Positions 3,601 to 40,855 of a stretch of DNA of 64,000 nucleotides are shown here, in pieces. The first letter of the stretch is position 1; every line of letters begins with the position of its first letter. The stretch is from IMG/VR virus record IMGVR_UViG_3300023174_000037; one strand, given 5' to 3'. The notes under the pieces were generated by a model, which saw nothing but the letters and a program-made list of their open reading frames with translations, was not told the DNA's origin and did no database searches. Both the position numbers and the translations under genes were made by a program. This DNA comes from a virus (Duplodnaviria; Caudoviricetes).

Positions 3601-4540
3601 GTTGTTTTTTCCTTAGTTCTATTTTAATTTTACTGGTTTCCTTGGCCTGCATAATAGTTATCAATGCGGCCAATCTACCCAAACGAATTACAGCGTCATT
3701 TACATCCTTGACACCTTTTGGCCACTCGGGCATACTAACTGCCCAACCTAGTTCTACAGCACGATCTACCAGTTTCATTCCAGCTTCGTCTTGATCCGGA
3801 ACAACAATAACGTCACGTCCTAGACTGCGTATTAATCTCGCCTGTGCATCATTAATCTCTGCGTGTAACACAGCCAGTCCATTGATACTGAGTGCGTCAA
3901 ACACACCTTCTACTACAATTGCTGATTGCCAGTTGGACTTTTGCAAATCTGTACCAAACACATATCCTGGTTGTATGTCTTGAATATATCTAGGAGTACG
4001 ATCGTCAAAAAAACGTGTAGTGTGTCCGACCACTTGATTATTGTGTGTAAACGGAATTACAACACCGCGACGCGGCATTGTTTTATACAAGAATGGATAG
4101 TCTAGTGGAACACATCTCTTTTGTAAATATTCTTTAGCAAGTTCATTCAATGGTTGTGTGTCGGCTGGTAAGTCTCGATCTTCAAATTCAATTGACTGCA
4201 ATTTTTGTATTATGTCTTGACGCTCGCCGAGCAAGCCTTCGATGCTCTTATGTTTTAAACTTTCAAGATTGATACGCTCAATTTCTTCTTGTGGCACATT
4301 CATCCACTCTAATAGTCGACGAGCTTTGAATGTTAGATTACGTCCCAATACAAAACTGGCAGTATATCCACAATTAAAACAGTGATAACTCCAAGAACCA
4401 TCTGCTGTGGGTTTGATCCCACCACGCGATCTTTTGTCCTGTGTGTCACCGCGATGAATGCAACAGGGTGCGTTGAAACTTATCCAACCCGAAGCTGTTT
4501 GTTTTCTTTTAATCGGAAGAAAAGAAATCACATCAATCAT
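3578..4540 (-). CDS. gp61: DNA primase (T4 gp61/DnaG-like)
   Basis: N-terminal Zn finger (PCC...HCFNCG), TOPRIM motifs VEGVFDAL and PDQDEAG; adjacent to helicase. Confidence 0.85.
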   Translation of the reverse strand: MIDVISFLPIKRKQTASGWISFNAPCCIHRGDTQDKRSRGGIKPTADGSWSYHCFNCGYTASFVLGRNLTFKARRLLEWMNVPQEEIERINLESLKHKSIEGLLGERQDIIQKLQSIEFEDRDLPADTQPLNELAKEYLQKRCVPLDYPFLYKTMPRRGVVIPFTHNNQVVGHTTRFFDDRTPRYIQDIQPGYVFGTDLQKSNWQSAIVVEGVFDALSINGLAVLHAEINDAQARLIRSLGRDVIVVPDQDEAGMKLVDRAVELGWAVSMPEWPKGVKDVNDAVIRLGRLAALITIMQAKETSKIKIELRKKQLVKRLRT

Positions 4541-4546
4541 GCTACA

Positions 4547-4575
4547 ATTATAGCAGATTTATTTACACACCGCAA
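4547..4575 (-). promoter_or_regulatory. sigma70-type promoter of primase (leaderless)
   Basis: TTGCGG-17nt-TATAAT, ATG 6 nt downstream of -10. Confidence 0.6.
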
Positions 4576-4587
4576 GAGAGTTTGGTG

Positions 4588-5733
4588 TTATCTATAAAGA
4601 AGGTCAACTACGTAGCCTGTGCTGATTATGACTGCAGCACCAGTTTGATTAGGATTATTTGGATAGATACCTGCACCCATGCCTGCGTTGGGCAAATACC
4701 AATAACCCGAACCACCGTTGGTTACTTCAACTCCGGTAACTATGCCGTCCGACACCGTGGCCACTGCTGTGGCACCGGCACCGTCGCCAATGAAGTTAAT
4801 GTGTGGCGGTGCCAAATACCCACTACCGCCATTGGTAATAGTAACACTGGTCACTACACCATTTTCGGTGGTTGCATAACCAATAGCCGGAGTTCCAGGC
4901 TGTGTTGGCACAGCAAATATACTGTTGTTAAAACATAAACGCAGTATTGGATGCCAGCCCACAATGTTCATATAGATAGTACGAGTTTCATTGTAGTAGG
5001 TAGTTGATTCGGTTACATTATAAAAAATACTCTCATAGTTTGCTGCGGCCTGAGCTTTGATTGTGCCGGTATATCCTACCAAGGTCATTTGTATGGTGGT
5101 AACGGCATTGGTAGGCTCAATAAAACTGCTGTAAAATTCTGTGTTGGCAAAACTATTCCAGTAGTTGCCACCATTGGGATTGCCCATCCAATAAGTGCCC
5201 GGACTATAACTGCCCCAGGCTGTGCCATCTAAACTGGCTTGAGCACTTAATTTAGTTGTAGGAATTGTTAACGGAGCACTGGGCACATGTTGTGGCAATA
5301 TGCTGTCTACAATAGTAGCCGGGGCTCGTGCGCCTGCTTGTGCATTGGTAAACACAGCTTCTGTCAAATTGCCACTGACACGTTGGATGCTGTAACTGGC
5401 CGGCTGTGCCAATACTTCCAATAGATCTGCACTGGTCAATGTAACTTTTGCACGACCTGTAGCAGCATTGAGCACGACCATTGGTTTCTCAATCAAGATC
5501 CGATCACCGTCGGTGCTGATAGCACGAAACAGGAAGCTACTTCCTGTGATGTTGACAGGTTTTTCCTGCTGGTTGATGAACTCAAACAACAGCACATTGT
5601 CAACGCCTTTGTTTATGGTTAGTTGTTTTGCATACACGGGATCGTACCTATAGATAAAAGTTTCGCCTGCACCTGTATCCATGAGTAACACTCGAGTAAT
5701 TTGCTGATAGATATAGGCTTGGGTGGAATACAT
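4588..5733 (-). CDS. Virion structural protein (BppU-like N-terminal domain, C-terminal VTxVTITNGGSGY repeats)
   Basis: LFEFINQQEKPVNITG...GRAKVTLT resembles baseplate upper-protein domains; two NGGSGY repeats typical of myophage tail/baseplate proteins; TAAATA at 5740-5745. Confidence 0.6.
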   Translation of the reverse strand: MYSTQAYIYQQITRVLLMDTGAGETFIYRYDPVYAKQLTINKGVDNVLLFEFINQQEKPVNITGSSFLFRAISTDGDRILIEKPMVVLNAATGRAKVTLTSADLLEVLAQPASYSIQRVSGNLTEAVFTNAQAGARAPATIVDSILPQHVPSAPLTIPTTKLSAQASLDGTAWGSYSPGTYWMGNPNGGNYWNSFANTEFYSSFIEPTNAVTTIQMTLVGYTGTIKAQAAANYESIFYNVTESTTYYNETRTIYMNIVGWHPILRLCFNNSIFAVPTQPGTPAIGYATTENGVVTSVTITNGGSGYLAPPHINFIGDGAGATAVATVSDGIVTGVEVTNGGSGYWYLPNAGMGAGIYPNNPNQTGAAVIISTGYVVDLLYR

Positions 5734-5793
5734 ACAATATATTTAGCTCCTTTGCTAGACCTGGGCAAAATGGTCTGGTAAATATCCGTAGAC

Positions 5794-6171
5794 ATGACAA
5801 ACGATTTCTTTGAAAAATTAGCTGAAAAATACCCATTTATCACCTTGTGTGTCTATGCCTCAACGGAATATGTAGGCATTATACAAAATCAAGATGACGC
5901 AATAACCACTATCTATGATTTTGGTGCTATAGCAAATGCGGATCTAAAACGTCATTTTTTAGAGTTGGCCAATATTTGGTGGTGGGAAAGTAATCGTAGT
6001 GTTCCAATCAACATATTTCTCAAAGGCGAATGGGATCTCTTTAGACCCTACCTTAAAACTTTCACCAACAAAGATCTAGAAATATTGCATGGCCCAGTTT
6101 GCAGTCTAAGTGAAATGAGCCGCAAAAAATCTAAACGCAAATCAATTACTCTTGTCAGGCGTGTCGAGTAA
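5794..6171 (+). CDS. Hypothetical protein
   Basis: 125 aa ORF with its own TAAATA (5779-5784), divergent from 4588..5733. Confidence 0.7.
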   Translation: MTNDFFEKLAEKYPFITLCVYASTEYVGIIQNQDDAITTIYDFGAIANADLKRHFLELANIWWWESNRSVPINIFLKGEWDLFRPYLKTFTNKDLEILHGPVCSLSEMSRKKSKRKSITLVRRVE

Positions 6172-7840: not shown

Positions 7841-8012
7841 TGGTTTTGATCAATTGATATATCATTATAACACGTTCCAGGGCTTCTTGTAAAGTGAGAT
7901 TGTTTTTGGCCATTCTGCGTATTTCTCTCCACATTTGATCTTCCATAATGTGATCGCGTAAAGGCCTGCCATCACTTGTTCGTGGATCTACATAATCCAT
8001 TGCTATTACCAC
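7830..8012 (-). CDS. Small hypothetical protein
   Basis: 60 aa, overlaps both neighbours in operon fashion. Confidence 0.6.
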   Translation of the reverse strand: MVIAMDYVDPRTSDGRPLRDHIMEDQMWREIRRMAKNNLTLQEALERVIMIYQLIKTNER

Positions 8013-8506
8013 GCCAAGTTATAGTTTACCACTTCACAGTTGCGACTGATATCTTTGACAAAATACACACACTCGGGTTCGGCGCCATCGCTGATCGGAA
8101 CACACAACATTTGACCATTTTTTAACTTAGGAGCATACCAACTTACTTCTTGATAGATGTCAATGATTTCAATGTCTGGAAAGCTGGGTCTGAAACTACT
8201 GAGTGGATTGAATTGAAATGCTTTGAATCCACGATCGTTTATACTGGTCAACGGCAACACTTCAAGGTCGCCAACGTCTGGCTCGCCTATTAGAATCTGC
8301 CAGTCCACTGGCATACGAATTCTGTGCGAACCTATGCGTAGGACCAACGCAGGTGCTGTGAAACTTTCCAAGAAGATTAACGGAATATAGTGATAGTCTG
8401 GGTCTTTAGGATCGCTATTATCAAAAATAGCAAAACGCATGTCATCTACTTCTTCTGGAAGATGGTCTAGATCAAATGGTTCATTGTCAAGTGTTAGTAT
8501 TCTCAT
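8006..8506 (-). CDS. Hypothetical protein, possibly a degenerate Hint-fold domain
   Basis: 166 aa beta-rich pattern; own promoter at 8513-8540. Confidence 0.6.
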   Translation of the reverse strand: MRILTLDNEPFDLDHLPEEVDDMRFAIFDNSDPKDPDYHYIPLIFLESFTAPALVLRIGSHRIRMPVDWQILIGEPDVGDLEVLPLTSINDRGFKAFQFNPLSSFRPSFPDIEIIDIYQEVSWYAPKLKNGQMLCVPISDGAEPECVYFVKDISRNCEVVNYNLAW

Positions 8507-8512
8507 AAGTGT

Positions 8513-8540
8513 ATTATAACATAGTTTACTACAAGTGCAA
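8513..8540 (-). promoter_or_regulatory. sigma70-type promoter (leaderless)
   Basis: TTGCAC-16nt-TATAAT with extended -10 TGn; ATG 6 nt downstream. Confidence 0.65.
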
Positions 8541-8543
8541 CCT

Positions 8544-10004
8544 TTATTTCCATTCTAGTTTCTCTTGTGTAAATGGATAGTTGGCTTCTTTGTAAAACTG
8601 TTTGCGCTTGGTCAAATGGCGCTTGGCAAATTTACAAGTGCTGGTTACATCCCAGATCTGGACGTGGTCTTTGTCTTCCGCTTTTCTAATGCCGCGCCCA
8701 ATTGATTGTATAACGCGGACAAAGCTCTTTCCGGGCTCAACAAGAACCAAATTAAAAATCCTAGGCAAATTAATACCCACAGCGGCCACACCATAAGTCG
8801 CCACAATAATCTTGCCAGTGCTGGTGGCAACTTCATCATATTCATCTTGTCTATCCTTTGCTTTGGTCGCACCTGAAACAAACACTGCCAGGTCACCTAG
8901 TAACTCTACTAGGGCATGACCCCCAGCTACACGATCTACCAACACCAGTGTATTGCCTGTGGCGTTGACCTGAGCAATCAATTGAGCTATTGTTTTTAAT
9001 CTGTCGGGTTCTTCTAACAGAAACTTTAGTTCACTTTGATAGTTGGCGAACTCTGCATGGTCAACCAACTGCACAATGTTCACATGACACTGTGCCAACA
9101 CGCCTTGGCTTTGTAGCTCACTGGCGGTGAGTTTGCCAATAACTGGACCAAGACTACACTTGAGTGCCTGGAACTCAAATGGTTCTTTAGGGATGGTTCC
9201 AGTAAGTCCCCACCGAATAGGCACACGGCTCATTACGCCTGTCAGTAAACTTTTTAATGCGTCGGCTTTGGCCATATGCACTTCATCAACAATAACACAT
9301 ACAACATCTTCAAGAAACTCACCTATAGTGCAATCGCCTACACCGTTCTTTGTGTTTTTAAGTAAGACATTTAGACTTTGCCAAGTGCAAATAGTATGCT
9401 GTCGACCCCATTCTTTACGATCGCCAAAGTAAACACCCACATCCTGTTGCATATTGATGTAGTCTTTTTCTGTCTGCGTTACTAGACTCTTGTTAGGAAC
9501 AATAACAATGGTCCTACCATAAGGTGCCACTGCATTTGATAGTGCGGCTGTGATAACTGTCTTGCCTGCGCCTGTGGCAATCTCTTGTATGCATTGTGGG
9601 TCCGCTAAAAAGTTGTTGATGATCTCAACTTGATAGTCACGCAACACCATTGGTTGCCCTTCTAACGGGTGTCCTTTTCCCCAGGCAATGTGATTAAATG
9701 ATTGCTCAGTGACCGGTTCAAACTCGAACGTGGTAGAATAGTCTCGTTGATCATCAAGTTCGATGTCATAGTTGAACTTTTCAAGAATAGGAATGATCTC
9801 TGGCAACAGGTTTACATAAGTGCTACCGCCCAGTTGGAAATAACTGACCTTGCCGTCCCAACGGCCAAGTCTAACTGCTGGAAGATATCTGGCACCTGGT
9901 ACATCATATTTAAATGCCGTGACCAATGCACGACGAGCATCAAGCTCGAGACCTTCTATTTTGATATTGACTTCATCACGGATTATAATTTTGGCTGTTC
10001 GCAT
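8544..10004 (-). CDS. uvsW: SF2 DNA helicase UvsW
   Basis: ATGAGKT, DEVH, GLTGT, GINLP, QSIGRGIR motifs; 486 aa. Confidence 0.92.
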   Translation of the reverse strand: MRTAKIIIRDEVNIKIEGLELDARRALVTAFKYDVPGARYLPAVRLGRWDGKVSYFQLGGSTYVNLLPEIIPILEKFNYDIELDDQRDYSTTFEFEPVTEQSFNHIAWGKGHPLEGQPMVLRDYQVEIINNFLADPQCIQEIATGAGKTVITAALSNAVAPYGRTIVIVPNKSLVTQTEKDYINMQQDVGVYFGDRKEWGRQHTICTWQSLNVLLKNTKNGVGDCTIGEFLEDVVCVIVDEVHMAKADALKSLLTGVMSRVPIRWGLTGTIPKEPFEFQALKCSLGPVIGKLTASELQSQGVLAQCHVNIVQLVDHAEFANYQSELKFLLEEPDRLKTIAQLIAQVNATGNTLVLVDRVAGGHALVELLGDLAVFVSGATKAKDRQDEYDEVATSTGKIIVATYGVAAVGINLPRIFNLVLVEPGKSFVRVIQSIGRGIRKAEDKDHVQIWDVTSTCKFAKRHLTKRKQFYKEANYPFTQEKLEWK

Positions 10005-10010
10005 TGTGCT

Positions 10011-10040
10011 AGTATAGCATACTTATTATAACAAAGTCAA
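10011..10040 (-). promoter_or_regulatory. sigma70-type promoter of uvsW (leaderless)
   Basis: TTGACT-18nt-TATACT, ATG 6 nt downstream. Confidence 0.6.
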
Positions 10041-10070
10041 AAAAACAGGTATCTTTTTACAGATACCTGT
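10038..10070 (-). terminator. Rho-independent terminator after the AAA+ ATPase gene
   Basis: Perfect 10-bp stem ACAGGTATCT/AGATACCTGT followed by a U-tract on the minus strand; a second 8-bp hairpin TGGGCAGT/ACTGCCCA lies at about 10077-10096. Confidence 0.8.
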
Positions 10071-10108
10071 CAAAAATGGGCAGTTTGCACTGCCCAGGAG
10101 CTACCATA

Positions 10109-11134
10109 TTAACTGTTCTTCATACAGGTGCTAGCGGCCAATGCCTTCCAGTTATCACCTGATACTTTGGTCAAGTCTGCAATCTTCAATGCCATACGCA
10201 GGCTCATTTCACGCAGGCGACTTTGATTGGCATCCATAAAATTAATGATCTCATCGCCTTGCTCCGGCGTAAAATCGTAGTCTGCGAACAACTCACCTTT
10301 GAGGTAAATCTGCTTGATACGCAAGAAGCGATCACGCATGGTGTTGAGCGTAAGATCCAGGAAGTGACAACGACTCTGCAAGGCTTCCAAGTGGTCTTGC
10401 AACTTCTTGCTCTTGAGGTTGCTGAACTGTAGGTTGGTAATAAAGATGCACGAACCTTTGAAGTCAAACATGTCTGGAACACCTTCACGGCGCAACATGG
10501 CACTATCACTGTTCCAGTAGATGCGGCGTTTCTTACCCGAGTCCAATGCGGCTTTGAGAATGTTCAAGCTCAAGTCGTCTTGGAACACTGAGTCACAGTC
10601 ATCAAACACCAGGACGTTGTTCTTGTCTGAATGTTTGTATAGAGTGCAATACAGACCAATTGGAGTCATTGCGCCTTTGATCACTTCGTACTTGACTCGA
10701 CGACCACTCAACTGATCAAACAAGCCACTATGCTCCAACTGTTTTTCTACACCATAACTCTTGCCTACACCAGGAGGGCCAACCACAATCATTGCACGGA
10801 CGTCACCAGCAATAGTGGCCTTGGTCATTTGATCAAGGATGTCAAAACGTTCGCCAATACGGGCAATAACTTCTTCATCAGTCTCTACTGGTGCCTTGGC
10901 ATGAGTCTGGGCAACAGGAGCCACAGCGGTAGCACCAGAAGTAAACTCTACATCTTCGATGCTGTTTACACGGATACGAACTACATCTGGTGTATCTTCA
11001 CCAAAGTAGCCTTCTGCATTTACTGTCACATAGCCTCCTTTGGCTCCAGTTTGGTAACCCTTTACTAGGTTAAAGGTCACATTGTTTACGGGTTGATTAC
11101 GATACGATCCGTGTTTTACAAGAATTGTAGACAT
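10109..11134 (-). CDS. AAA+ family ATPase, early-expressed, function unknown
   Basis: Walker A GPPGVGKS, Walker B LVFDDCD, sensor FITN, ALQSR arginine finger; AAGGAG RBS. Confidence 0.85.
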   Translation of the reverse strand: MSTILVKHGSYRNQPVNNVTFNLVKGYQTGAKGGYVTVNAEGYFGEDTPDVVRIRVNSIEDVEFTSGATAVAPVAQTHAKAPVETDEEVIARIGERFDILDQMTKATIAGDVRAMIVVGPPGVGKSYGVEKQLEHSGLFDQLSGRRVKYEVIKGAMTPIGLYCTLYKHSDKNNVLVFDDCDSVFQDDLSLNILKAALDSGKKRRIYWNSDSAMLRREGVPDMFDFKGSCIFITNLQFSNLKSKKLQDHLEALQSRCHFLDLTLNTMRDRFLRIKQIYLKGELFADYDFTPEQGDEIINFMDANQSRLREMSLRMALKIADLTKVSGDNWKALAASTCMKNS

Positions 11135-11170
11135 TTTTTAGCTCCTTAACTATGTTGTTAATATGTGTAT

Positions 11171-11199
11171 ATTATACGCGAAATGGATTTAATGGTCAA
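11171..11199 (-). promoter_or_regulatory. sigma70-type early promoter
   Basis: TTGACC-17nt-TATAAT. Confidence 0.8.
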
Positions 11200-11204
11200 C
11201 CGGC

Positions 11205-11360
11205 TTAAACGCCACAGGCTTCAAGGAATCGAGCCTGGTTGAACCTAGGATTAGTAGTCTGTGCTACCTTACAGAATGCCTCGGCTGTGATGCGGGCTGA
11301 CTTACGATCTGACATTTGGCTAATTTCTTTAGCCATTGCTATAAAGTGTTTTTTAGTCAT
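11205..11360 (-). CDS. Small phage protein, 51 aa (below ORF-track cutoff)
   Basis: MTKKHFIAMAKEISQMSDRKSARITAEAFCKVAQTTNPRFNQARFLEACGV; AGGAG RBS and own promoter. Confidence 0.8.
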   Translation of the reverse strand: MTKKHFIAMAKEISQMSDRKSARITAEAFCKVAQTTNPRFNQARFLEACGV

Positions 11361-11391
11361 TTCTGCTCCTGTTTTGTTAGTCTATACAAGT

Positions 11392-11420
11392 ATTATAGCA
11401 AATGGGCAATTTCTGGTCAA
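11392..11420 (-). promoter_or_regulatory. sigma70-type early promoter
   Basis: TTGACC-17nt-TATAAT. Confidence 0.8.
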
Positions 11421-11423
11421 CCA

Positions 11424-11452
11424 TAAAAAAACCCTCCAAAATGAAGGGTTTT
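11424..11452 (-). terminator. Rho-independent terminator
   Basis: AAAAACCCT/AGGGTTTTT stem with U-tract after 11475..11960. Confidence 0.7.
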
Positions 11453-11474
11453 TGTAGGTAAGTGTTCACTAACT

Positions 11475-11960: not shown

Positions 11961-11986
11961 TGATTATCCTTTGTTTAATATTTGTG

Positions 11987-12748
11987 TTACTTACGTTCAA
12001 TATCTTCTTCGACGCAATTATTACCGTATTGTATTTCTACAATTTTTAACGGATGATCAGTTTCATTACATAACTGATGCCATTCATTACAATTGATATG
12101 TATATGAGTGTGCGGACCAAATTTGCCCAATAACTCTGCATCACTTTTTCTATTTATACCATAAACTGTAGCTGTGCCTTCGGCAACGTGCCAGTGTTCA
12201 GCGCGATCTTGATGACGTTGCATACTAAGTTGTTGGCCTGGCAATACTGTAAGTTCTTTAACTTTGGTGCCAGGCACATCATGCAATACTCGATAATATC
12301 CCCACGGGCGTTCAGTTTTAGGTGATTTCCATTCTTCTAAAATCCAACTACTGCTATTGGCTTTATTAAACCCACCAACGCCGAAAGCAAATTGCAAGTT
12401 GTTGTCATCGACGTCCATTTCTGGAATATTTGCTTGTGTGCGGTCGCCACCATTGGCAAAGATAATTTTATCATTAGGATAATGTGCTCGAACTTGCTGT
12501 AGCAAATGGCAAGCGGTTCCATCGTCATCGTCAAACGTATACACTTCGTCCACCGAGGACAAATTGTTTAGGACACACAGGCGTTCATTCCAGGGCATAA
12601 ATGCACGGCCTTTTTTACGGGCCAGCCACTCATCGCTATTGATGCCTACGATTAACAGGTCGCCCAACAAGCGGGCTTCTTTTATCATCCGGATATGGCC
12701 AGAATGTATTGGGTCAAACCCACCGCTTACTACCACTATTTTTTTCAT
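11987..12748 (-). CDS. Cytidylyltransferase (HIGH-type) fused to a mannose-6-phosphate-isomerase type II-like cupin
   Basis: GGFDPIHSGH, VGINSD, FANGGDR; C-terminal RPWG...SMQRH...EHW...VEIQYG...EEDIER. Confidence 0.88.
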   Translation of the reverse strand: MKKIVVVSGGFDPIHSGHIRMIKEARLLGDLLIVGINSDEWLARKKGRAFMPWNERLCVLNNLSSVDEVYTFDDDDGTACHLLQQVRAHYPNDKIIFANGGDRTQANIPEMDVDDNNLQFAFGVGGFNKANSSSWILEEWKSPKTERPWGYYRVLHDVPGTKVKELTVLPGQQLSMQRHQDRAEHWHVAEGTATVYGINRKSDAELLGKFGPHTHIHINCNEWHQLCNETDHPLKIVEIQYGNNCVEEDIERK

Positions 12749-12766
12749 GCAAATATTTATAGCCCG

Positions 12767-14233: not shown

Positions 14234-15292
14234 TTATTCCTCCGTTGCTGTTTCTTCAGTGGTTACTGTTTCTTTTTGATTTTTAAAATCTAACATTACT
14301 TGATCTAAACATCCGCCTTCGTTACTTTCCCAAGCCTTGCGGAACTGTTTAATTATCTCACCTTCGCTGGTGACAAACATTAAGCGATTTCCATCTTTTT
14401 TAAGAATGCCTTTTTTCTCTGCTAGATCAGTTAATCCACTGTAAGGGTTCATACCTGTTTCGTACGGAATCTTAACCTGCATGCCTTCAAATGGTTTTGC
14501 GTAACGAGTTTTCATTACTTTACAGCCAGCGCGGATACCCATGACTTCACTAATCTTATTGCCATCCTCGTCTTCTTTAAGCTTCATTTTCTTCATGGCA
14601 ACCACAATGCTAGACGCATAGATAAATCCTTGACCACCGGAGATCTTGTCATCTGGGTCAAACATATCCTGACTGGCGTAAGTATGATTCGTACAAACCA
14701 TACCTACATTATAGCCGCCAAACATATTGACTGAATTGCGAACCAGTGCTGTCAATGCTTTAGGCTTGCGACCCATGTCGCCTTTCATGTCGCCTGCTTC
14801 AAACTGATTCACGTCAGTTGGAGTAAGCAACATACCCAACGAGTCAATAACCCACAACACCTTCATGCGCTCGCCATCCGGTAATGCTTTGTAATCAATC
14901 ATAAATGTTGAAATAGCTTTGGCTACATCGTCAATCATGCTCATGTTTAATTTAAGTAACTTGTCCGGGCCGGTGTCTACGCCAAGTGCATGAAGCCATG
15001 TTTCATCCAGGGCGTTTTCTGTATCAACTAGGATAACAAAAATACCTTGCTCTTGTGCATTTTTAACAATGTTGCCACTGCAAATGTAACTTTTACCTGC
15101 ACCGGATTCGCCGGCAAATACTGTAATCTTACCCAGTGGAATACCGCGATTAAAATCTCCGCTGATAAGATAATTCAAGGCAAAGTTGCCTGTTGAGATC
15201 CAGTCAGTTGGATCGTTAAATCCAATGCTTAGGCCTTCAATGCTTTTGGTGATGTCCTTACGGAACTTGCTGATGTCAAATGGTTTTGCCAT
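14234..15292 (-). CDS. uvsX: RecA-like recombinase UvsX
   Basis: AGESGAGKS, VDTENALD, VIDSLG, TNHTY, SGGQGFIYASS. Confidence 0.95.
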   Translation of the reverse strand: MAKPFDISKFRKDITKSIEGLSIGFNDPTDWISTGNFALNYLISGDFNRGIPLGKITVFAGESGAGKSYICSGNIVKNAQEQGIFVILVDTENALDETWLHALGVDTGPDKLLKLNMSMIDDVAKAISTFMIDYKALPDGERMKVLWVIDSLGMLLTPTDVNQFEAGDMKGDMGRKPKALTALVRNSVNMFGGYNVGMVCTNHTYASQDMFDPDDKISGGQGFIYASSIVVAMKKMKLKEDEDGNKISEVMGIRAGCKVMKTRYAKPFEGMQVKIPYETGMNPYSGLTDLAEKKGILKKDGNRLMFVTSEGEIIKQFRKAWESNEGGCLDQVMLDFKNQKETVTTEETATEE

Positions 15293-19660: not shown

Positions 19661-22600
19661 TTACTTCTTCATTCCTGAAAGTTCTTTGAGCCGGTCCAAA
19701 AAGCTGGTATCTTTGTCTACTGCTTGCATTTTACCAGAATGTCCATACTGCCCGGCCAAAGACGAACGACTTTCTTTAGTGGCTGAATCTGGATGTGGCT
19801 TGCCGTGGGCACGTTGATAGAAATCAAATTCGGCTTTGCGATCCTTTTGTTCAATATCTTTGCGAGTTAACGGTGCTTGGCCTTGTTTGTTACGTTGAAT
19901 AGTTGGCCGTTCGTAATCTCTAGGATTTTTAGGATCAATTGCTTCATCGGTGGTACCACCGCCTATCGCATCACCAATAGAATTGCCTATTGATGCTCCA
20001 CGAATTGCTCCAGCTGGGCCGCCTACTAATGCTCCGCCAATTCCACCAAGTGCGGCACCTACTAAACCTTCGTCGGTTTGTTCTTGATTTTCTCCCAAAA
20101 TTGCGTCAATAAGTTTTTTGCCACCGTATAACAGAGCTAGTAATAATCCAATCGGTATTGCATACTTCACTGCGGCTGATGCTAAGTCTCCAATAGTTTT
20201 TCCGTCAACTGCGGTGCCTACGGCTTTGGTAATTGCCTCAGCGGCCGATCCAATGTCGTGATATACTTCGCCTACTCCGGTACCTAGACTGTTCGCCAAG
20301 TCTGTGATACCTTGGTAAGCACCAACTCCAACACCGATTGGCACTGCATTTTTGGCGGCTATCTCTGCACCTTGTTTGGCCACTTGACCAACTGCTTGTG
20401 CACCTTGTTTGGCCACTTGACCAACTACCGGAGCCGCAGATTTAGCTGCCTGTCCGGCTACTTGTGCTCCTTGCCCGGCCATTTTACCTATTGCCGGGCC
20501 AATTTTTGATAGTAACGGCATTAATGCTCTGGCACCAGCGGCTAGAGCTGGGCCAATGAATTCATTTAATTGTTCATCTTCATGAATTCCGGCGGCTTTT
20601 TTCATTTTGATTAATTCGTCATCTTCGTCTGTTTCTTTCCTACCAGCCGATGATACCGCGTTCATTGCAGATCCAGCAATAGTAACTGGCGCTCCTACAA
20701 CATCACCAACAACTTCGCCAGCGCCTTTGGCAAAATCTTTTACAATGCCCTCGTCGGTTTCTTGTTCACCAACAAGGCCGCTTAAGGCGCTGCCAATTGA
20801 GCTACCAATACCATCTAGCGCACCAGATCCTGCGGCATACCCTAGTGCGCCGCCAGCCAACGCCGGAACAATAGGATTGATACTATCGTCATCTTCTTCA
20901 TCGTCTTTTTCAACTAACGCAGATCCGCCCTTGGTGAGGTGTTGACCTAATCCAGCACCAACGATGCCGCCAAGTGGTCCGCCTAACATTGTACCAATTG
21001 CTCCGCCGCCTAGTGTGCCAAGAATGCCTTCATCAGTTTCTTCTTCGCCTACCAATGGAATACTTAAAGATTTTCCGCCACCACCTAGGCCTTGTGCTAC
21101 TGGATCTAATAGTTTTTTAACAATTTGACCGGTTGAATTTTCTTTGTTTTCTTCCATACCGGCATGATCGTATTCGGGTGCTGGGCGTTGTTTAGCCGGC
21201 ACACCAGCAATTTTTAATATACCTGATAACGAGTCTTGATATTCGTCGGCATAGTCGCCCACACTTTCACGTTCCATTCCGTAGTCCTCATCTGGAATGC
21301 CTGGACTACGACCACCATAACCACTAATGCCTAAGTCTGCACCAAAACGATCAGCTACCCATTCATATGGGTCTCCGTCGCGGGCTTTTTTAGTACCATA
21401 TGGCATGTCGTCAAAGTAATAGTCATACAGGGCATTGTGCAGTTCGTCACTGACTTCGCCTGTTTCTTCAAAGTCCTTGACATCACGTTTGAATGTATTG
21501 AGGATGTGTTGGAATGTAGAACCTGTGCTGTCGGTAAGAACACTTTCATTCATTGGTTCAAGATCAGCAGGATTAGTTGCTTCAGGAGGATTCATTTCAG
21601 CAGTAGGATCAATTTGCAATTGGTCTAATACCGTACGCACTTCGGGCCAATCACTGAGTTCTTGCAAGCGATCCATGATCACTTGACGTGCATCAGCATT
21701 GGCATCACGATCAGCTAATTCTTCTAACTGATCAAACAACTGATCGTCGCCAACAAGTCCATACAATTGTTCAGTGACATTGGTAGCATCAGCGCCCACT
21801 GGTAAATCTTTACTTAGAAGCTCGATTAGTTTATCTTGCTTCTCTGGAGTATCTGGCAATGACCAGGTTCCTTCTGTTAGGCGCTCTGCCCAAGCTTCAA
21901 ATATATTGGCTTCTTTCATTGCTGTTCCTTGTTGTTGTATTTTGGCCAGCAAAGGTAATGCTGACTCAATTCTTGTGTCAATGCTTTGCTTGACAAAAAG
22001 ATTTTTTAAACTTTCAATCACTACGTCTTGCTCTGAAATCTCAGCCGGACTCCATGATTCAAAATATGTTGCGTATCCAGTCCGGGTACCAAGCCCTTTG
22101 AGACTGCGTTGCAAGTTTGCTTGATACTCTTGAACTTGTTCTAATAATTGCTGTGTATCGCCTTCGAAAATTTGTCCTTGATTGGCTCTGCGGAAACGAC
22201 TCAATACATTTAGCTCTGTGACCATTTCGGCAATGTGATTGCCTCTGGCATCGTAAGGACGTCCACCTTGACGCACATGCTCCAACATGGCACGTCCGCC
22301 AGTTAGGCTCTTAAATGGTAACTTGTAACGTTCACTGTCGGCTGTTTCAATAAACAGGCTTTCGATATAACGGAAACGGGCATCACCCTCAGCAATGTTT
22401 TTCTTATGACGAATCATCAGTCGAGCTTCAGTGGCGGCGCCGCTCCAGCTAGTTGTCCGATTACCAGTCCATGATTCAAACAGGCCTTCTTTGATAGCCG
22501 CTTGCCCTTGCATACTGTAACGCAAACGATTTAAGTTTTTGATACCAAACGTCATGAAGTTTCTCACGGCAAAATTTTTCAACTGTTCTAAGAAACTGAA

Positions 22601-22855
22601 CCAGTCGTTTTTGTCGTCACCTTCCATGGTACGTCCCACATTGTCTGAGCAATAAACTTCAAGGTCGTTGTCATCGCCCAGCATGATTACCACTGTGCCA
22701 TAATCTTTGCCCGAGTGGGCAACAAAGTCAAAACTGTATATTTCAGTTTCTGCAGGGTCGGATGCAGGTTTACCAGAACTGTCCAGCATTTCTGGGTCAA
22801 AATCTCTACTGACCAGTAGATCAAATAATTTACGAGCGGGTGTGATATCTGCCAT
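19661..22855 (-). CDS. Large putative internal head protein with glycine-zipper segments
   Basis: 1064 aa; follows gp17; own TAAATA 22863-22868; repeated TDE/LNE motifs preceding GxxxG-rich hydrophobic stretches. Confidence 0.6.
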   Translation of the reverse strand: MADITPARKLFDLLVSRDFDPEMLDSSGKPASDPAETEIYSFDFVAHSGKDYGTVVIMLGDDNDLEVYCSDNVGRTMEGDDKNDWFSFLEQLKNFAVRNFMTFGIKNLNRLRYSMQGQAAIKEGLFESWTGNRTTSWSGAATEARLMIRHKKNIAEGDARFRYIESLFIETADSERYKLPFKSLTGGRAMLEHVRQGGRPYDARGNHIAEMVTELNVLSRFRRANQGQIFEGDTQQLLEQVQEYQANLQRSLKGLGTRTGYATYFESWSPAEISEQDVVIESLKNLFVKQSIDTRIESALPLLAKIQQQGTAMKEANIFEAWAERLTEGTWSLPDTPEKQDKLIELLSKDLPVGADATNVTEQLYGLVGDDQLFDQLEELADRDANADARQVIMDRLQELSDWPEVRTVLDQLQIDPTAEMNPPEATNPADLEPMNESVLTDSTGSTFQHILNTFKRDVKDFEETGEVSDELHNALYDYYFDDMPYGTKKARDGDPYEWVADRFGADLGISGYGGRSPGIPDEDYGMERESVGDYADEYQDSLSGILKIAGVPAKQRPAPEYDHAGMEENKENSTGQIVKKLLDPVAQGLGGGGKSLSIPLVGEEETDEGILGTLGGGAIGTMLGGPLGGIVGAGLGQHLTKGGSALVEKDDEEDDDSINPIVPALAGGALGYAAGSGALDGIGSSIGSALSGLVGEQETDEGIVKDFAKGAGEVVGDVVGAPVTIAGSAMNAVSSAGRKETDEDDELIKMKKAAGIHEDEQLNEFIGPALAAGARALMPLLSKIGPAIGKMAGQGAQVAGQAAKSAAPVVGQVAKQGAQAVGQVAKQGAEIAAKNAVPIGVGVGAYQGITDLANSLGTGVGEVYHDIGSAAEAITKAVGTAVDGKTIGDLASAAVKYAIPIGLLLALLYGGKKLIDAILGENQEQTDEGLVGAALGGIGGALVGGPAGAIRGASIGNSIGDAIGGGTTDEAIDPKNPRDYERPTIQRNKQGQAPLTRKDIEQKDRKAEFDFYQRAHGKPHPDSATKESRSSLAGQYGHSGKMQAVDKDTSFLDRLKELSGMKK

Positions 22856-22865
22856 AGTAGTGTAT

Positions 22866-24431: not shown

Positions 24432-25549
24432 AATATACTTGCTAGCTCAGGCCATAATTGTTCAAAGCGACCTATCATACTAGAATGATATTTACTTTCA
24501 ATTTCAGCAATGTGATTTATAAATTCTGGTAAGACATTGTTATTGGCCTGCTGATGTCGGGATTCGGTCTCTTGTAAGAAGTTACGTTGGGCATGATCCA
24601 AATTGTGATTACTCAATACTTTTTGTAATTCTTTAAGAGCCAACTGTCTAACATCAGGTCCAAGTTGTAAGGGATCTAAATAGGCTGGATGATACAGGCT
24701 TTGCCAATGCACAGGCACATTGGCATCATGTGCCCAAGAAATCAATTCAGATAGTCTAGTAGCATTGTAAATGTTGTAAAGCGGATGTATGCCTAATCTA
24801 TGTCCTGAGCAGGCCTGTATTGCTTTGATGTTGCGTTCAATTTGATTCCATGTACCGCCATAGCGCACATATTCAAATCTATCGCCTGTGTTGTCAATGC
24901 TGATGTTCCAACCAACACGCTGACGTTCGGCCAGTTTGGCAAATATTTTGTTAGTGCTCAAGTCTACCCCAAGGTTGGTTATAACGTCAACTTGGCAATC
25001 CACAGGAATTGCATCCAACAAGCGTTCGTTTTCTTTCAGCAACAGGGGTTCGCCACCAATTAGAGCCACTTTCTTAATGTGGGCTTGATGCTGTTCAAGA
25101 TAGTCGCATACCTGGTCTGAGTAGGGTCTAGTGCCCGACTGCACTGATAACTGTTTTAAACTGGCCCACTGACTGCTGCTGTGTTCATTGCAATAGTTAC
25201 AGCTGAAATTGCAAGTGGTGTTCCAGCGTATATCAATCAGCACCGGATGATGTTCTGTATCTGTGGCTTGGCCGGCATCAAAGCCAGGATTTATTCTGTT
25301 GTGCCAATCACGTTCGCTACGACCATAACGCTCGGCCTGCACACAATTGTGGCAATACTGGGCATGTGGGCGGCCTTCACGCAGGGTTTGTCTGACTTCT
25401 TGTAGGGCAGAGCCGTGTAGAATCTCCTCAATAGTTTGGCTGTTTAAGTTGCCCAACATATTAGGATCACCTGCACAACAGGTTTTGACACTGCCTTGTG
25501 GATTGATGTGCAAGCCCCTCCATGGAGCTGCACACAAGAAGTTGCTCAT
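24428..25549 (-). CDS. Radical SAM protein with N-terminal SPASM/Twitch-like domain
   Basis: CNFSCNYC, GGEPLL, N-terminal LCAAPW...KTCC...CHNC; ATGA overlap with gp17. Confidence 0.88.
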   Translation of the reverse strand: MSNFLCAAPWRGLHINPQGSVKTCCAGDPNMLGNLNSQTIEEILHGSALQEVRQTLREGRPHAQYCHNCVQAERYGRSERDWHNRINPGFDAGQATDTEHHPVLIDIRWNTTCNFSCNYCNEHSSSQWASLKQLSVQSGTRPYSDQVCDYLEQHQAHIKKVALIGGEPLLLKENERLLDAIPVDCQVDVITNLGVDLSTNKIFAKLAERQRVGWNISIDNTGDRFEYVRYGGTWNQIERNIKAIQACSGHRLGIHPLYNIYNATRLSELISWAHDANVPVHWQSLYHPAYLDPLQLGPDVRQLALKELQKVLSNHNLDHAQRNFLQETESRHQQANNNVLPEFINHIAEIESKYHSSMIGRFEQLWPELASIL

Positions 25550-25571
25550 ACTGTAATTATGAGCGTCGGAG

Positions 25572-30284: not shown

Positions 30285-30773
30285 TTATGCTTTGATATTG
30301 TTTTGTGAGCTTGTGGCTATCAAGCGTTCAAGCAAATCATTGCGACTCAACACCTGCCCGTGTGCTGTAGGCATTGCTTCTTCGGGTGCATTACGCTGTT
30401 GGTCTTGATCCATTTTTAACTTTTTTAACTGCAAATCAACCATTTTTAACTTTTTGTTCAACTTGGTTGTTTTGGCTGTTAACGCATGTCCTAGCATACT
30501 GCTAGCCACAGCAAAGATTTCACTGGCATATCGGCTATCCACATTCATGCCCAAATCCATTAGATCATTGAATGTTTCTTGTGCTTTTGAAGCAAGTTCA
30601 TCAAGTTCTCGATCGCCGGTATCCAAGTCACGAACTGTGGGCAGGGCCGCATCAATTTTATCTATAGTGGCATCCAATTCGGCTATCTGAGTGCGTGTTT
30701 CTTCAGCTGTGGGATTGTCTTCAGCGGTTTCTGAAGGAGGGAAATCAAAAAGTTCTTCCAATTTTCTAGTCAT
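30285..30773 (-). CDS. Probable terminase small subunit (T4 gp16-like)
   Basis: NVDSRYASEIFAVASSML resembles gp16 NADSPRHMEVFATLMGQM; 162 aa; late promoter. Confidence 0.6.
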   Translation of the reverse strand: MTRKLEELFDFPPSETAEDNPTAEETRTQIAELDATIDKIDAALPTVRDLDTGDRELDELASKAQETFNDLMDLGMNVDSRYASEIFAVASSMLGHALTAKTTKLNKKLKMVDLQLKKLKMDQDQQRNAPEEAMPTAHGQVLSRNDLLERLIATSSQNNIKA

Positions 30774-30802
30774 ACCATATTTACCGTCGGTATGTTAGTC
30801 TA

Positions 30803-31237: not shown

Positions 31238-31239
31238 AG

Positions 31240-31605: not shown

Positions 31606-31607
31606 GG

Positions 31608-32822: not shown

Positions 32823-32828
32823 AATTGA

Positions 32829-33452: not shown

Positions 33453-33499
33453 GGTATTATCTCCTATATACTTTATTTATGGTATTCGTTGCCATGGTA

Positions 33500-36943: not shown

Positions 36944-37041
36944 AGTGAAAATCCTTTTTTCTAGTTATTAATATTTATATCAAAAGACAAAAACAAGAGG
37001 TAATTAAGGCCTTTGGTAAAGGTTTTCGTGGTAAATATATC

Positions 37042-37389
37042 ATGATTAGACCCATTTGTCCGGCATGTCGCCAGCGACCTTGCGCCATCAATTACTATCG
37101 TGACGAAGTCACACACTATCGAAATCGGTGTGGGCAATGCATTGCTAAAAATCGTAGTATTAAACCACCCGAACCCAGGTGGAAGACTGCAGGTTACAAG
37201 AAAAAGCCTGCATGTGATCGTTGCAGTTTTAGATCACGTTATGCCAGTCAACTACTGGTTTATCATGTGGATGGCAACCAGCATAACACTACTCTACGCA
37301 ATTTAAAAACCGTATGTTTAAATTGTGTAGAGGAAATTAAACGGATGGACCGTCCTTGGGTGCCTGGTGAGCTAGAACCAGATCTTTAA
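37042..37389 (+). CDS. Zn-finger/HNH-like protein
   Basis: Four CxxC-type pairs; HVDGN...N...CLNC; TAAATA 4 nt upstream of ATG. Confidence 0.7.
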   Translation: MIRPICPACRQRPCAINYYRDEVTHYRNRCGQCIAKNRSIKPPEPRWKTAGYKKKPACDRCSFRSRYASQLLVYHVDGNQHNTTLRNLKTVCLNCVEEIKRMDRPWVPGELEPDL

Positions 37390-38005
37390 TCTGACTGTAA
37401 AGACGATCTAACCCGTCGGCATTGTTGTCAATCACAGCATCAAATTTGGTACCAATCCAAGCAGTTTCACTGGCATGAACTTTGGATCTTTCTAGCTGTT
37501 CTCGGCTTAATGCCCATGTTATATTACCAACCGGCCCACGGTTTAAACTCAAGGCCGCATCATACCACGCAGGTTCTGGGCCACGAACCACACGAATAAC
37601 AATGCCACCAGCATTTCTAATACTTTTAATTTCATTAGGAAAACGGCAGTCTGAAATTACTACATCATCCGTTGTTTTTCTAAGTTTATTTTCTAAGGCT
37701 GCAATCCAGATATCATCGTGAAAGCTTCTACGGGCAACTTCGGTCCCCCATACTTGTAACACATGCCTGGGAGTAAGGTGTGGCATTTTTAAACGGTCTG
37801 CCCACCATGGATCAACTTGCTCACGCCAGTGCCTGGACTCTTTAGTGCGGCCTTCAAGCAGTTCACGGTCCCAGCCAAATATTTGGGCTACCGCATCTTT
37901 AAGACTGTGGGCAAAACTTTCTCTTCGAAATTGATGTATGTTTTGCAAGTAGTCTGCTATGGTATCTTTACCACTTCCAATCAATCCACAAATTCCAATA
38001 ATCAT
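37337..38005 (-). CDS. Deoxynucleoside monophosphate kinase (T4 gp1-like)
   Basis: IIGICGLIGSGKDT, FAHSLK, R..LQ..GTE, ISDCRFPNE, HASE. Confidence 0.9.
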   Translation of the reverse strand: MIIGICGLIGSGKDTIADYLQNIHQFRRESFAHSLKDAVAQIFGWDRELLEGRTKESRHWREQVDPWWADRLKMPHLTPRHVLQVWGTEVARRSFHDDIWIAALENKLRKTTDDVVISDCRFPNEIKSIRNAGGIVIRVVRGPEPAWYDAALSLNRGPVGNITWALSREQLERSKVHASETAWIGTKFDAVIDNNADGLDRLYSQIKDLVLAHQAPKDGPSV

Positions 38006-38523
38006 GATAACGCCTTTACATTTAATTGTTTGAGAGTCAGTTGTAGCATGTCAATCTGCCTGCGACAGTCTTCCAACGCATGGTGTGTTGTTGGTGGTTT
38101 AGGCAGTTCTGGCCATAAACTAAAAACGGTGCGACTATCACGCACATTATAGAACTGCCACGGAATAGGCTTGCCATAACTTTTATACGCATGTTCAAGT
38201 ATGTTCATATCATATGTTGGACCTTGCGCCCACACTCGCTTGGCATGCCATACCAATTTGCCTAGACTATCCAGGGCCTGATCTAGGTCAATTCGTCCAC
38301 CTTCCATAAACGCTTCGTCACGAGCAGCCGCGGGTTGAGTAGCCCACCAGTCAATGGTGCCTTGTTGTATGCTACGGTTTTCTTGGCTTTCTAGTGTAAC
38401 ACGGGCATAATATTGTTGGTTATAATAACCAGAGCCAAACGGATCAAATGCCTGAGCGGCAATAGTTAGAATAGTAGTGTCGGGGCCTGTTCCAAGGCCT
38501 TCCAAGTCAATCATTAGGTCCAT
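38002..38523 (-). CDS. DEDDh 3'-5' exonuclease/exoribonuclease (Rv2179c-like)
   Basis: MIDLE, W.QG..YD, RDSRT, HHALEDC. Confidence 0.85.
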   Translation of the reverse strand: MDLMIDLEGLGTGPDTTILTIAAQAFDPFGSGYYNQQYYARVTLESQENRSIQQGTIDWWATQPAAARDEAFMEGGRIDLDQALDSLGKLVWHAKRVWAQGPTYDMNILEHAYKSYGKPIPWQFYNVRDSRTVFSLWPELPKPPTTHHALEDCRRQIDMLQLTLKQLNVKALS

Positions 38524-38529
38524 ACTATG

Positions 38530-38558
38530 ATTATAGCAGGATTTTAGAACAAAGTCTA
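38530..38558 (-). promoter_or_regulatory. sigma70-type promoter (leaderless)
   Basis: TAGACT-17nt-TATAAT, ATG 6 nt downstream. Confidence 0.65.
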
Positions 38559-38565
38559 GTGTGTA

Positions 38566-39336: not shown

Positions 39337-39338
39337 GT

Positions 39339-39363
39339 AGGGAAGCTCCGTTCCCTGTATTTA
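39339..39363 (-). promoter_or_regulatory. Late promoter plus RBS-containing hairpin of gp13
   Basis: TAAATA 39358-39363; AGGGAA-CGGAGC-TTCCCT stem-loop 39339-39356. Confidence 0.65.
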
Positions 39364-39369
39364 GTAGTT

Positions 39370-40536
39370 TTACCAAGCCCAAAGGATGATTAAATTATCG
39401 TTGCCGCGACCGTTCCATTTGGTTTCTGTAGCATTAATTGCCGCAAATGCTTTACGAGCAGCGGGTTTTCCAACACTTGTAATGGTTTTAAGTTGTTCTG
39501 CAGGTTTACGCAAAGTTTTTTGCACAGTTTGTTGAGCATCAAATCCTACCACAGACGATCCTTTTACTGAAAATGTTCCTATGTGACTGTCCGCCACAAC
39601 GTGGACCAGTTTACGTTTGGCTGTGTCATATAGCCAAGCTTCGCTAGCGCCAACCAGCTTGACTACCGGTTCTGATTTGAGTTTAAGATCTGCAAACTCT
39701 CGGAGGAACTTAAAACTACGAGTCAATTTCTCAGGACTTACGGCTTTCTTGGCACGTGGCTTGCGTTCTACCTTTTTAAGTTGAACATAGCTGTTGCAGT
39801 CATTGATTACCGTTTCGCAGAACTTTACACAATTACGAAGTTGTATTTTTGTGAGATGACTGTAGCCTTCAACCAACTGATCATCTTTGCCTTCTAACAC
39901 TTCATTAAATTCAGCCAGTCGTAATTCCCAAACTCGTGTCACAGTGCTGATCATGTTAGGGCTGATATTCATGCCGCGCATCAACCCAATGGGTTTGAAA
40001 TCCGCCGACATTTTTGCACCAGCATCAATGAAATCATCAAACATGCCTTCAAGTTCTCCACAGCAGTCTGATATTTTTTCACGCAGGTGATCTTGAATTG
40101 TAAGTTTTGCCACAGCGGCATCAGCATCAACTTCGGACTGCGCTTTCTTAGCTTCTTGTTTTACATTGAGCATTTGTGTGATATCGTTATCAATAATGCT
40201 TTGTTCGTGTTCCGTAAGCGCCAGTCCAAGCAAGGTCATGCGGCAGACCCAAGCCGGTGTAATACGAATTTGACTATCTGGAACGCCGCGCATTGTTTTA
40301 GCGTCTTTTGTTCGACCATTATGCTCTAAATAATGACACAGCATGTCTTTGGCATCTTTTTTACCATAGTGGTAATTGTACCAGGCAAATGCATTAGCCA
40401 GTGCGCTGATGCGATTTTCATCTGCGGGTTGCGTTTTCCATTCGGGTTCAAACCCTATGTATTTGGTTTCAGCACCCTTGGGGTTTAGTCGTTTGATTTC
40501 AGTTGTTTTAGCCATAGTCGTCGTTGTTTTTACCAT
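39370..40536 (-). CDS. Hypothetical early protein
   Basis: Start re-assigned to ATG 40536 (or 40515) because the promoter at 40543-40571 lies inside the track ORF. Confidence 0.75.
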   Translation of the reverse strand: MVKTTTTMAKTTEIKRLNPKGAETKYIGFEPEWKTQPADENRISALANAFAWYNYHYGKKDAKDMLCHYLEHNGRTKDAKTMRGVPDSQIRITPAWVCRMTLLGLALTEHEQSIIDNDITQMLNVKQEAKKAQSEVDADAAVAKLTIQDHLREKISDCCGELEGMFDDFIDAGAKMSADFKPIGLMRGMNISPNMISTVTRVWELRLAEFNEVLEGKDDQLVEGYSHLTKIQLRNCVKFCETVINDCNSYVQLKKVERKPRAKKAVSPEKLTRSFKFLREFADLKLKSEPVVKLVGASEAWLYDTAKRKLVHVVADSHIGTFSVKGSSVVGFDAQQTVQKTLRKPAEQLKTITSVGKPAARKAFAAINATETKWNGRGNDNLIILWAW

Positions 40537-40542
40537 GTGTGT

Positions 40543-40571
40543 ATTATATGTGAAAATTGCTCGTTTGTCAA
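40543..40571 (-). promoter_or_regulatory. Consensus sigma70-type promoter (leaderless)
   Basis: TTGACA-17nt-TATAAT, ATG 6 nt downstream. Confidence 0.85.
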
Positions 40572-40819
40572 CCGAGCAGATTAGCAAAGGTTATGTGCTG
40601 TTCTAAATTTGTAAGTAATTCTTTTACTTTTTGAACCAATTCTCTATAGCGTGATGTTTCTCGATGCAGTCTGCGGCATTCTACACTTTCCATATCAGCG
40701 GCCACAATAGCTTGGTCCACAGCACGAACCATTTTTAACAGGTCTTTTCGAGCCACCTTATTTTTAACGTTGGCAATGGCTCGTTCTGCCCGGTCTAAGC
40801 GTTGAAATAGTTCGTCCAT
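40568..40819 (-). CDS. Small helical hypothetical protein
   Basis: Start MDELFQ at 40819, 7 nt below a -10 box. Confidence 0.7.
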   Translation of the reverse strand: MDELFQRLDRAERAIANVKNKVARKDLLKMVRAVDQAIVAADMESVECRRLHRETSRYRELVQKVKELLTNLEQHITFANLLG

Positions 40820-40826
40820 GTTTGTA

Positions 40827-40855
40827 ATTATACGAGCTTTTGAATTACAAGTCAA
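40827..40855 (-). promoter_or_regulatory. sigma70-type promoter (leaderless)
   Basis: TTGACT-17nt-TATAAT. Confidence 0.75.

Follow-up and report, generated by a model that had tools for sequence, protein, structure and literature searches.

The window considered here is a stretch of 64,000 nucleotides (nt) from the IMG/VR record IMGVR_UViG_3300023174_000037, in which genes were called by simple open reading frame (ORF) heuristics. Its guanine and cytosine (GC) content is ~43%, and the minus strand carries most of its genes. Six of these minus-strand genes begin directly behind a sigma70-type promoter (Table 1). Three encode proteins with recognisable domains: a primase (Toprim domain, assigned as primase in PHROG), a superfamily 2 (SF2) helicase with ResIII, DEAD and Helicase_C domains, for which the name uvsW is plausible, and a 3'-5' exonuclease with an Rv2179c-like domain (E 1e-33). 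The remaining three, proteins of 166, 388 and 83 amino acids (aa), could not be assigned a function by domain and PHROG profile searches. Read directly on the minus strand, each of the six sites consists of a -35 hexamer, a spacer of 16-18 nt, a -10 hexamer, a further 6-7 nt and an ATG which is the first of a long ORF. The 6-7 nt that separate -10 box and ATG contain no GGAG-like word at any of the six sites and are too short to accommodate a Shine-Dalgarno (SD) sequence. An earlier sequence-only reading of this DNA had described six sigma70-type promoters that place an ATG at the predicted +1 position, and all six were confirmed. It is probable that these sites are working sigma70-type early promoters, the mRNAs of which are predicted to be leaderless.

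Table 1. Promoters, start sites and associated elements in the window. Coordinates refer to the 64,000-nt window, with the strand in brackets; numbers between hexamers and start codons are distances in nt.
Element	Position (strand)	Gene or start	Composition
Promoter-ATG unit	4538-4575 (-)	primase, 3578-4540	TTGCGG (4575-4570)-17-(TGc)TATAAT (4552-4547)-6-ATG
Promoter-ATG unit	8504-8540 (-)	166-aa protein, 8006-8506	TTGCAC (8540-8535)-16-(TGt)TATAAT (8518-8513)-6-ATG
Promoter-ATG unit	10002-10040 (-)	SF2 (UvsW-like) helicase, 8544-10004	TTGACT (10040-10035)-18-(TGc)TATACT (10016-10011)-6-ATG
Promoter-ATG unit	38521-38558 (-)	3'-5' exonuclease, 38002-38523	TAGACT (38558-38553)-17-(TGc)TATAAT (38535-38530)-6-ATG
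Promoter-ATG unit	40534-40571 (-)	388-aa protein, 39370-40536	TTGACA (40571-40566)-17-TATAAT (40548-40543)-6-ATG, without TGn
Promoter-ATG unit	40817-40855 (-)	83-aa protein, 40568-40819	TTGACT (40855-40850)-17-TATAAT (40832-40827)-7-ATG, without TGn
Two tandem intrinsic-terminator hairpins	10044-10096 (-)	directly upstream of helicase promoter	U-tract of the second enters the -35 box
Promoter with SD leader	11132-11199 (-)	341-aa protein, 10109-11134	TTGACC-17-TATAAT, 36-nt leader, AAGGAG SD
Promoter with SD leader	11358-11453 (-)	51-codon ORF, ATG 11360	terminator, TTGACC-17-(TGc)TATAAT, 31-nt leader with AGGAG
SD-led start		gene start 62469	AAGGAG SD
Late-type box	5731-5745 (-)	candidate ATG	TAAATA before ATG
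Late-type box	5779-5796 (+)	candidate ATG	TAAATA before ATG
Late-type box	12746-12759 (-)	heptose kinase/adenylyltransferase-like, 11987-12748	TATAAATA 5 nt before ATG
Late-type box	22853-22868 (-)	1064-aa virion protein, 19661-22855	TAAATA 7 nt before ATG
Late-type box	30771-30783 (-)	162-aa protein, 30285-30773	TAAATA 4 nt before ATG
Late-type box	37032-37044 (+)	candidate ATG	TAAATA before ATG
Late-type box	40865-40880 (+)	virion structural protein, divergent from 83-aa gene	ATAAATA 7 nt before ATG 40878
Late-type box	62606-62619 (+)	candidate ATG 62617	TAAATA before ATG; uncertain site

The sites carry the features by which a sigma70-type promoter is recognised, namely TTGACA-like and TATAAT-like hexamers 16-18 nt apart which are kept in relatives. 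With a consensus scanner four of them (40571-40543, 40855-40827, 38558-38530 and 10040-10011) were placed near the top of their respective regions, with matches at 10-12 of 12 positions; the site before the start at 40536 is perfect (12/12) and that before 40819 matches at 11/12. An extended -10 element, TGn, is present at four of the six sites (starts 4540, 8506, 10004 and 38523), and in the promoters of the first two it precedes a perfect TATAAT. A separate feature of this region is that the 83-aa gene terminates within the TTGACA hexamer (40566-40571) of the promoter of the 388-aa gene, its TGA stop codon being part of that hexamer, so that coding and promoter sequences overlap.

The distance between -10 box and start codon is far from what chance would give. 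The pattern TATAAT-N6-ATG occurs five times in the window versus 0.96 expected, and none of 100 shuffles reached five; in four of the occurrences the ATG is the first of a long ORF. The remaining one, at 14701, lies in frame inside gene 14234-15292, is replaced by CTG in a relative and, not being conserved, was rejected as a chance match. The earlier reading had put forward a histogram of -10-to-ATG distances as a check, and this has a sharp peak at 6 nt: a box with at least five of six matches to TATAAT ends exactly 6 nt before the start of six of the 63 called genes versus 0.30 expected, the expectation being the rate at the 2106 other ATGs of the window (Poisson probability ~1e-6). One gene has such a box at 7 nt (0.43 expected), and the neighbouring distances have 0-1.

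The source of the window is placed in an uncultured, abundant clade of freshwater jumbo myoviruses related to Pseudomonas phage PA5oct and Agrobacterium phage Atu_ph07. A DNA search of the window against cultured phages gave no near match, and its 1147-aa protein, a tail sheath, is 42-46% identical to the counterparts in these two phages. Relatives in IMG/VR number in the hundreds; among them are complete genomes, 337 and 344 kb in size and carrying terminal repeats, and one 320-kb record that is 93% complete. RNA runs having words in common with the window come from riverine, freshwater and lake metatranscriptomes.

For the comparative analysis 240 related loci (~75-98% protein identity) were fetched from IMG/VR and the orthologous starts were located, counts being of distinct upstream sequences. 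Across the six genes, 317 of 366 distinct relatives retain the junction of promoter and ATG, hereafter the joint. It is found in 64 of 65 relatives for the primase (distance 5-6 nt, spacer 17), 66 of 67 for the 166-aa gene (6 nt), 48 of 49 for the exonuclease (6 nt), 59 of 61 for the 388-aa gene and all 53 for the 83-aa gene (6-7 nt, spacer 17). Throughout these five families the distance stays at 5-7 nt and the spacer at 16-18 nt, and hexamers and distance are conserved while spacer and 5-7-nt discriminator drift in sequence. With a looser pattern for the 388-aa gene (TTGACx-16/17-TAnnnT and an in-frame ATG) the arrangement is present in 63 of 63 distinct relatives, at 6-7 nt in 61 and at 9 nt in two. 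Where relatives of this gene lack the first seven codons found in the window, the -10 box has shifted along with the new first ATG and still lies 6-7 nt from it. A promoter with its +1 at the A of the AUG would be the simplest reading of these comparative results.

The helicase gene differs from the other five, the joint being kept in 27 of 71 relatives (6-8 nt, always with ATG) while the remaining 44 lack a promoter at this position. Relatives with the promoter usually carry it behind a conserved terminator hairpin, the stem sequence of which differs; in those without it the gene directly follows another gene. As a separate observation, the gene context upstream of the helicase varies among close relatives, with at least four contexts and the promoter in some only, which points to frequent turnover of gene cassettes at this position.

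The identity of the start codon is also constrained, ATG being used in 316 of the 317 joints. Helicase orthologues start with GTG or TTG in none of the 27 relatives that have the joint versus seven of the 44 without the promoter (Fisher p = 0.039), a bias in keeping with the established requirement for an AUG at the 5' end. It might be argued that the true starts lie downstream behind normal SD sites and that the apparent N-terminal codons are 5' untranslated region. In-frame ATG, GTG or TTG codons are indeed present downstream, for instance at 8440, 38514 and 40515, but none of the candidates has an SD. From codon 2 onward variation falls mostly at the third position, which over codons 2-11 is the most variable in all five families tested, and PHROG profiles align from position 1-2 of the proteins. 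Residues 1-153 of the 166-aa protein correspond to positions 1-153 of phrog_11279, so its N-terminus appears to be right. Some relatives of the 388-aa protein do start at the codon matching 40515, but there it is this codon that adjoins the promoter. The third-position variation, the PHROG alignments and the seven-codon indel that keeps the joint thus indicate that coding begins at the joint ATG, and the comparative results together would exclude downstream starts. The proposal of downstream starts is largely refuted and scarcely credible.

Joints of this kind are found alongside conventional initiation. The 341-aa gene starting at 11134, the ORF starting at 11360 and the gene starting at 62469 have normal SD leaders, as the earlier reading had also stated; leaderless and SD-led initiation coexist in the phage. 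SD-like 4-mers precede 33 of the 63 window genes, about half, and among sigma70-type units in the window about six are leaderless versus four with a leader. Only the first cistron of a unit is leaderless. The downstream starts at 39336, 38005, 8000/8012 and 7840 have SD-like sites, overlaps or their own promoter, the sites at 39336 and 38005 being of GGAG and AAGG type. The start at 7840 appears to be of a third kind: between 7840 and 7893 (minus strand), before a 149-aa gene, TTTACA-18-(TGt)TATAAT is followed by a 23-nt leader without a recognisable SD.

A working model can be outlined on this basis. The usual start point of host RNA polymerase, a purine ~7 nt past the -10 box, would fall in these units at the A of the ATG or 1-2 nt from it. 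The mRNAs would then have neither a 5' untranslated region nor an SD, and the first cistron would be read by ribosomes recognising the 5'-terminal AUG, independently of pairing between SD and anti-SD, while downstream genes of the operon would use SD sequences or coupling. Leaderless genes would be efficiently translated only from their own primary transcripts and not from read-through RNA, in which the AUG would be internal and without an SD. It is attractive to consider that the benefit may lie here, translation being tied to the firing of the gene's own promoter and insulated from read-through transcripts, an idea into which the tandem terminators before the helicase promoter fit.

A number of observations weigh against leaderless transcription from these promoters. 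Transcription start positions are predictions from sequence geometry. The -35 boxes of the primase and 166-aa gene promoters match the consensus at only three of six positions, below the threshold of the scanner. Whole-region totals of consensus promoter matches do not exceed those of shuffles, so the case stands on the top sites and on conservation. As the relatives are kin, their conservation counts are not independent of one another. The leaderless genes show no significant reduction in folding over their first 36 nt relative to other gene starts (p = 0.13). Finally, a 188-nt metatranscriptome contig (40670-40857) runs through the promoter of the 83-aa gene, representing either DNA carry-over or read-through RNA. 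Metatranscriptome contigs cover small shares of the window in short pieces, and assembled contigs cannot show 5' ends.

Read-through RNA would be central if the promoters were real but the AUGs served mainly as internal, SD-less starts on read-through transcripts, the A/U-rich TATAAT providing an unstructured landing site of the S1 type and its distance from the AUG being incidental. Five of the six promoters follow an upstream gene without a terminator, SD-like 4-mers are confined to the 33 genes mentioned above, and no obvious SD precedes the helicase orthologues that lack the promoter, all of which would suit such a scheme. In hundreds of relatives, however, the distance stays within 5-7 nt, and the -35 box and spacer length are conserved alongside; an A/U-rich enhancer would require no fixed distance and no -35 box at a 17-nt spacing. 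Furthermore, ATG is exclusive at the joints, with GTG and TTG appearing where the gene is an internal cistron, and the helicase promoter is insulated by terminators. Internal initiation on read-through RNA is therefore unlikely as the main route.

The same architecture recurs at a second class of promoter. In eight places in the window a candidate ATG follows a late-type TAAATA box at a distance of 4-9 nt. The start at 62617 is in doubt: the box overlaps a preceding ATG at 62611, which itself has a sigma70-like promoter 28 nt upstream. The start at 40878 is supported by the alignment of residue 3 of the virion protein with position 2 of phrog_11591. Between this gene and the 83-aa gene is a gap of 58 nt (40820-40877) in which the minus-strand sigma70 promoter and the plus-strand ATAAATA box stand back to back, an arrangement conserved in relatives. 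Both flanking genes would be leaderless, with no untranslated region on either side. A radical SAM gene (24428-25549, minus strand) has CATAAT-6-ATG in its start region (25549-25561) with no clear -35 box, and a relative has TATAAGTA-4-ATG; the site is ambiguous, possibly representing a variant of the late box with one more leaderless start.

The pattern extends beyond the window. It was followed in G001, a complete 337-kb relative, and in G002 and G003, which are complete or near-complete. TATAAT-N6-ATG sites number 16, 11 and 13 in G001, G002 and G003, respectively, versus 1, 6 and 3 for a reversed control pattern. Stringent full promoters before first ATGs in G001 show a spike at 6 nt (five sites, flanked by single sites at 5, 7 and 8 nt) over a background at 11-38 nt, and roughly a quarter of the recognisable sigma70-type units of this genome would be leaderless. 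The distance from TAAATA to ATG in G001 is bimodal, with ~25 sites at 4-7 nt and about as many at ~17-24 nt. As the joint is present at late TAAATA promoters too, leaderless starts appear to be a second, genome-wide initiation mode and not a device of replication genes. This bears on the suggestion of the sequence-only reading that key replication genes are built to be translated when SD-dependent translation is impaired. The promoters do abut the real starts, but late structural genes share the joint and three of the six genes have no assigned function.

Clues to the host come from translation-related genes of the relatives. A gene for ribosomal protein bS21 is present in G001 (L246:11311-11532, corresponding to G001 51311-51532), in G002 and G003, and also in PA5oct (170985-171143) and Atu_ph07 (489120-489257). 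In G001 it follows a ClpX-like gene and has a GTG start behind an AGGA site, with a GGTAAATA box ~30 nt upstream. The phage bS21 is 60% identical to that of Bordetella and Rhodocyclaceae, 47% to that of Pseudomonadaceae and Azospirillum, sampled for the gamma- and alphaproteobacteria, and 40% to that of Pelagibacter; against a 300-genome sample of the class the best identity is 61%, and PDB matches favour proteobacteria over Flavobacterium. G001 also carries a permuted, two-piece transfer-messenger RNA (tmRNA) with the tag ANASNDETFALAA beside a tRNA-Met gene (L253:16894-17230; ARAGORN). The similarity of bS21 and the permuted tmRNA are leads to a possible betaproteobacterial host, and as leads they do not identify it. 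Matches of the phage ClpX in bacterial genomes are scattered over many phyla and uninformative on the host.

The presence of bS21 raises the question of whether the phage takes over translation, with bS21 or another factor shifting ribosomes away from SD-dependent initiation so as to favour leaderless or SD-less phage mRNAs. The protein is encoded by all three complete relatives and is located at the anti-SD region of the ribosome (PMC9723584), although the bS21-encoding phages described in that work belong to a different clade with 31-34% GC. PA5oct and Atu_ph07 nevertheless encode bS21 and show no leaderless peak, and about half of the phage genes keep SDs of the AGGAG type. Searches of the three complete relatives found no homologue of IF3 (C-terminal domain) and no RegB-like SD-cleaving nuclease, the single weak match to the latter containing stop codons. 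A takeover of this kind is accordingly very unlikely. The same results tell against the purpose that had been suggested for the architecture, SD impairment or phage-imposed shut-off, since neither RegB nor IF3 was found and bS21 occurs in PA5oct and Atu_ph07 without the architecture. A broader scenario is that a freshwater jumbo clade, likely infecting betaproteobacteria in which leaderless mRNAs should be rare, rebuilt between a quarter and a half of its early and late units as leaderless, perhaps with a ribosome modified by bS21 or another phage factor, making phage translation SD-independent and tied to promoter firing. This scenario is speculative and improbable. The layout is most likely explained by efficient translation of 5'-AUG mRNAs in the host, which is probably a proteobacterium, and the clade-specificity fits a host that favours leaderless initiation.

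A close precedent among phages differs in several respects. Thermus phage phiYS40 reportedly has leaderless middle and late units, with promoters directly before the starts and extended TGn -10 elements common. These promoters are said to lack a -35 box, the host belonging to Deinococcus-Thermus, where leaderless genes are reportedly the norm. Both are large lytic phages with promoters that abut start codons, and TGn is shared by four of the six sites here. The window has, by contrast, full -35/-10 promoters, kinship with PA5oct and Atu_ph07, SD-led genes beside the leaderless ones and a bS21 pointing to a proteobacterial host. With conserved TTGAC-type -35 boxes at 16-18 nt and a bS21 closest to betaproteobacteria, the promoters would act as those of phiYS40 do but do not belong to the phiYS40 class.

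Parallels can also be drawn with T4, the late promoters of which have the sequence TATAAATA, are read with gp55 and give leaders with SDs. The late boxes of the window, (T)ATAAATA, resemble this consensus and stand before structural genes. They differ in that about half of the late boxes here lie 4-7 nt from the ATG.

Among cultured relatives the sigma70-type promoters are shared and the joint is not. In PA5oct, of the cultured relatives with a transcriptome the closest one, host RNA polymerase acts at TTGAC/TATAATA early promoters (Lood et al. 2020, PMC7318152), a promoter type that also serves orthologous genes here; the orthologue of the 166-aa gene likewise stands behind TTGACA-17-TATAAT. 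It has, however, a 24-nt leader, an AAAGGTG SD and a TTG start, and in Atu_ph07 and E. coli phage A4 the orthologue also has an SD-type leader. The genomes of PA5oct and Atu_ph07 have no peak at 5-8 nt, their promoters lying mostly 19-38 nt upstream with SD leaders, and the PA5oct paper makes no mention of leaderless mRNAs (PMC7318152). In phiKZ and AR9, jumbo phages with mapped transcription starts, leaderless mRNAs are absent (PMC8244752, PMC5312081).

Cellular and temperate systems offer further points of comparison. In Deinococcus a -10 box next to the ORF has been shown experimentally to drive leaderless genes (2025, PMC12340547). The likeness is that a TAnnnT box acts as the -10 element at a specific spacing, a few bp ahead of the ORF; the Deinococcus system is, however, cellular, phylum-wide and mainly -10-dependent, whereas that described here is viral, has strong -35 boxes and shows the same joint at a second promoter class (TAAATA). 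In Bradyrhizobium leaderless mRNAs are associated with the TGnTA extended -10 motif (PMC4842269), which recalls the TGn at four sites of the window. For a proteobacterium, the cI mRNA of lambda transcribed from PRM is described as starting at the A of the AUG and being translated without an SD (Shean and Gottesman 1992, as cited in PMC12340547). That case involves one regulated, activator-dependent lysogeny promoter, in contrast to the many constitutive-looking strong promoters of a lytic jumbo phage.

Leaderless phage mRNAs are thus already known, from lambda cI and phiYS40, and the present clade is a well-supported new example. What sets it apart is the use of full sigma70 promoters, the inclusion of T4-like late promoters, the strong conservation and the absence of the arrangement from cultured relatives. 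For an abundant, uncultured clade of freshwater phages of 320-344 kb, start codons and the boundaries of transcription units are thereby fixed, at positions which would be misassigned by gene callers that look for an SD. The comparison of PA5oct and Atu_ph07, with leaders of ~19-38 nt, and this clade, with its leaderless second class, indicates that initiation architecture can change within one phage family. The clade provides a natural system for asking what selects leaderless initiation, be it the properties of host ribosomes, insulation from read-through or a takeover of translation, and the pattern may help to narrow down the host.

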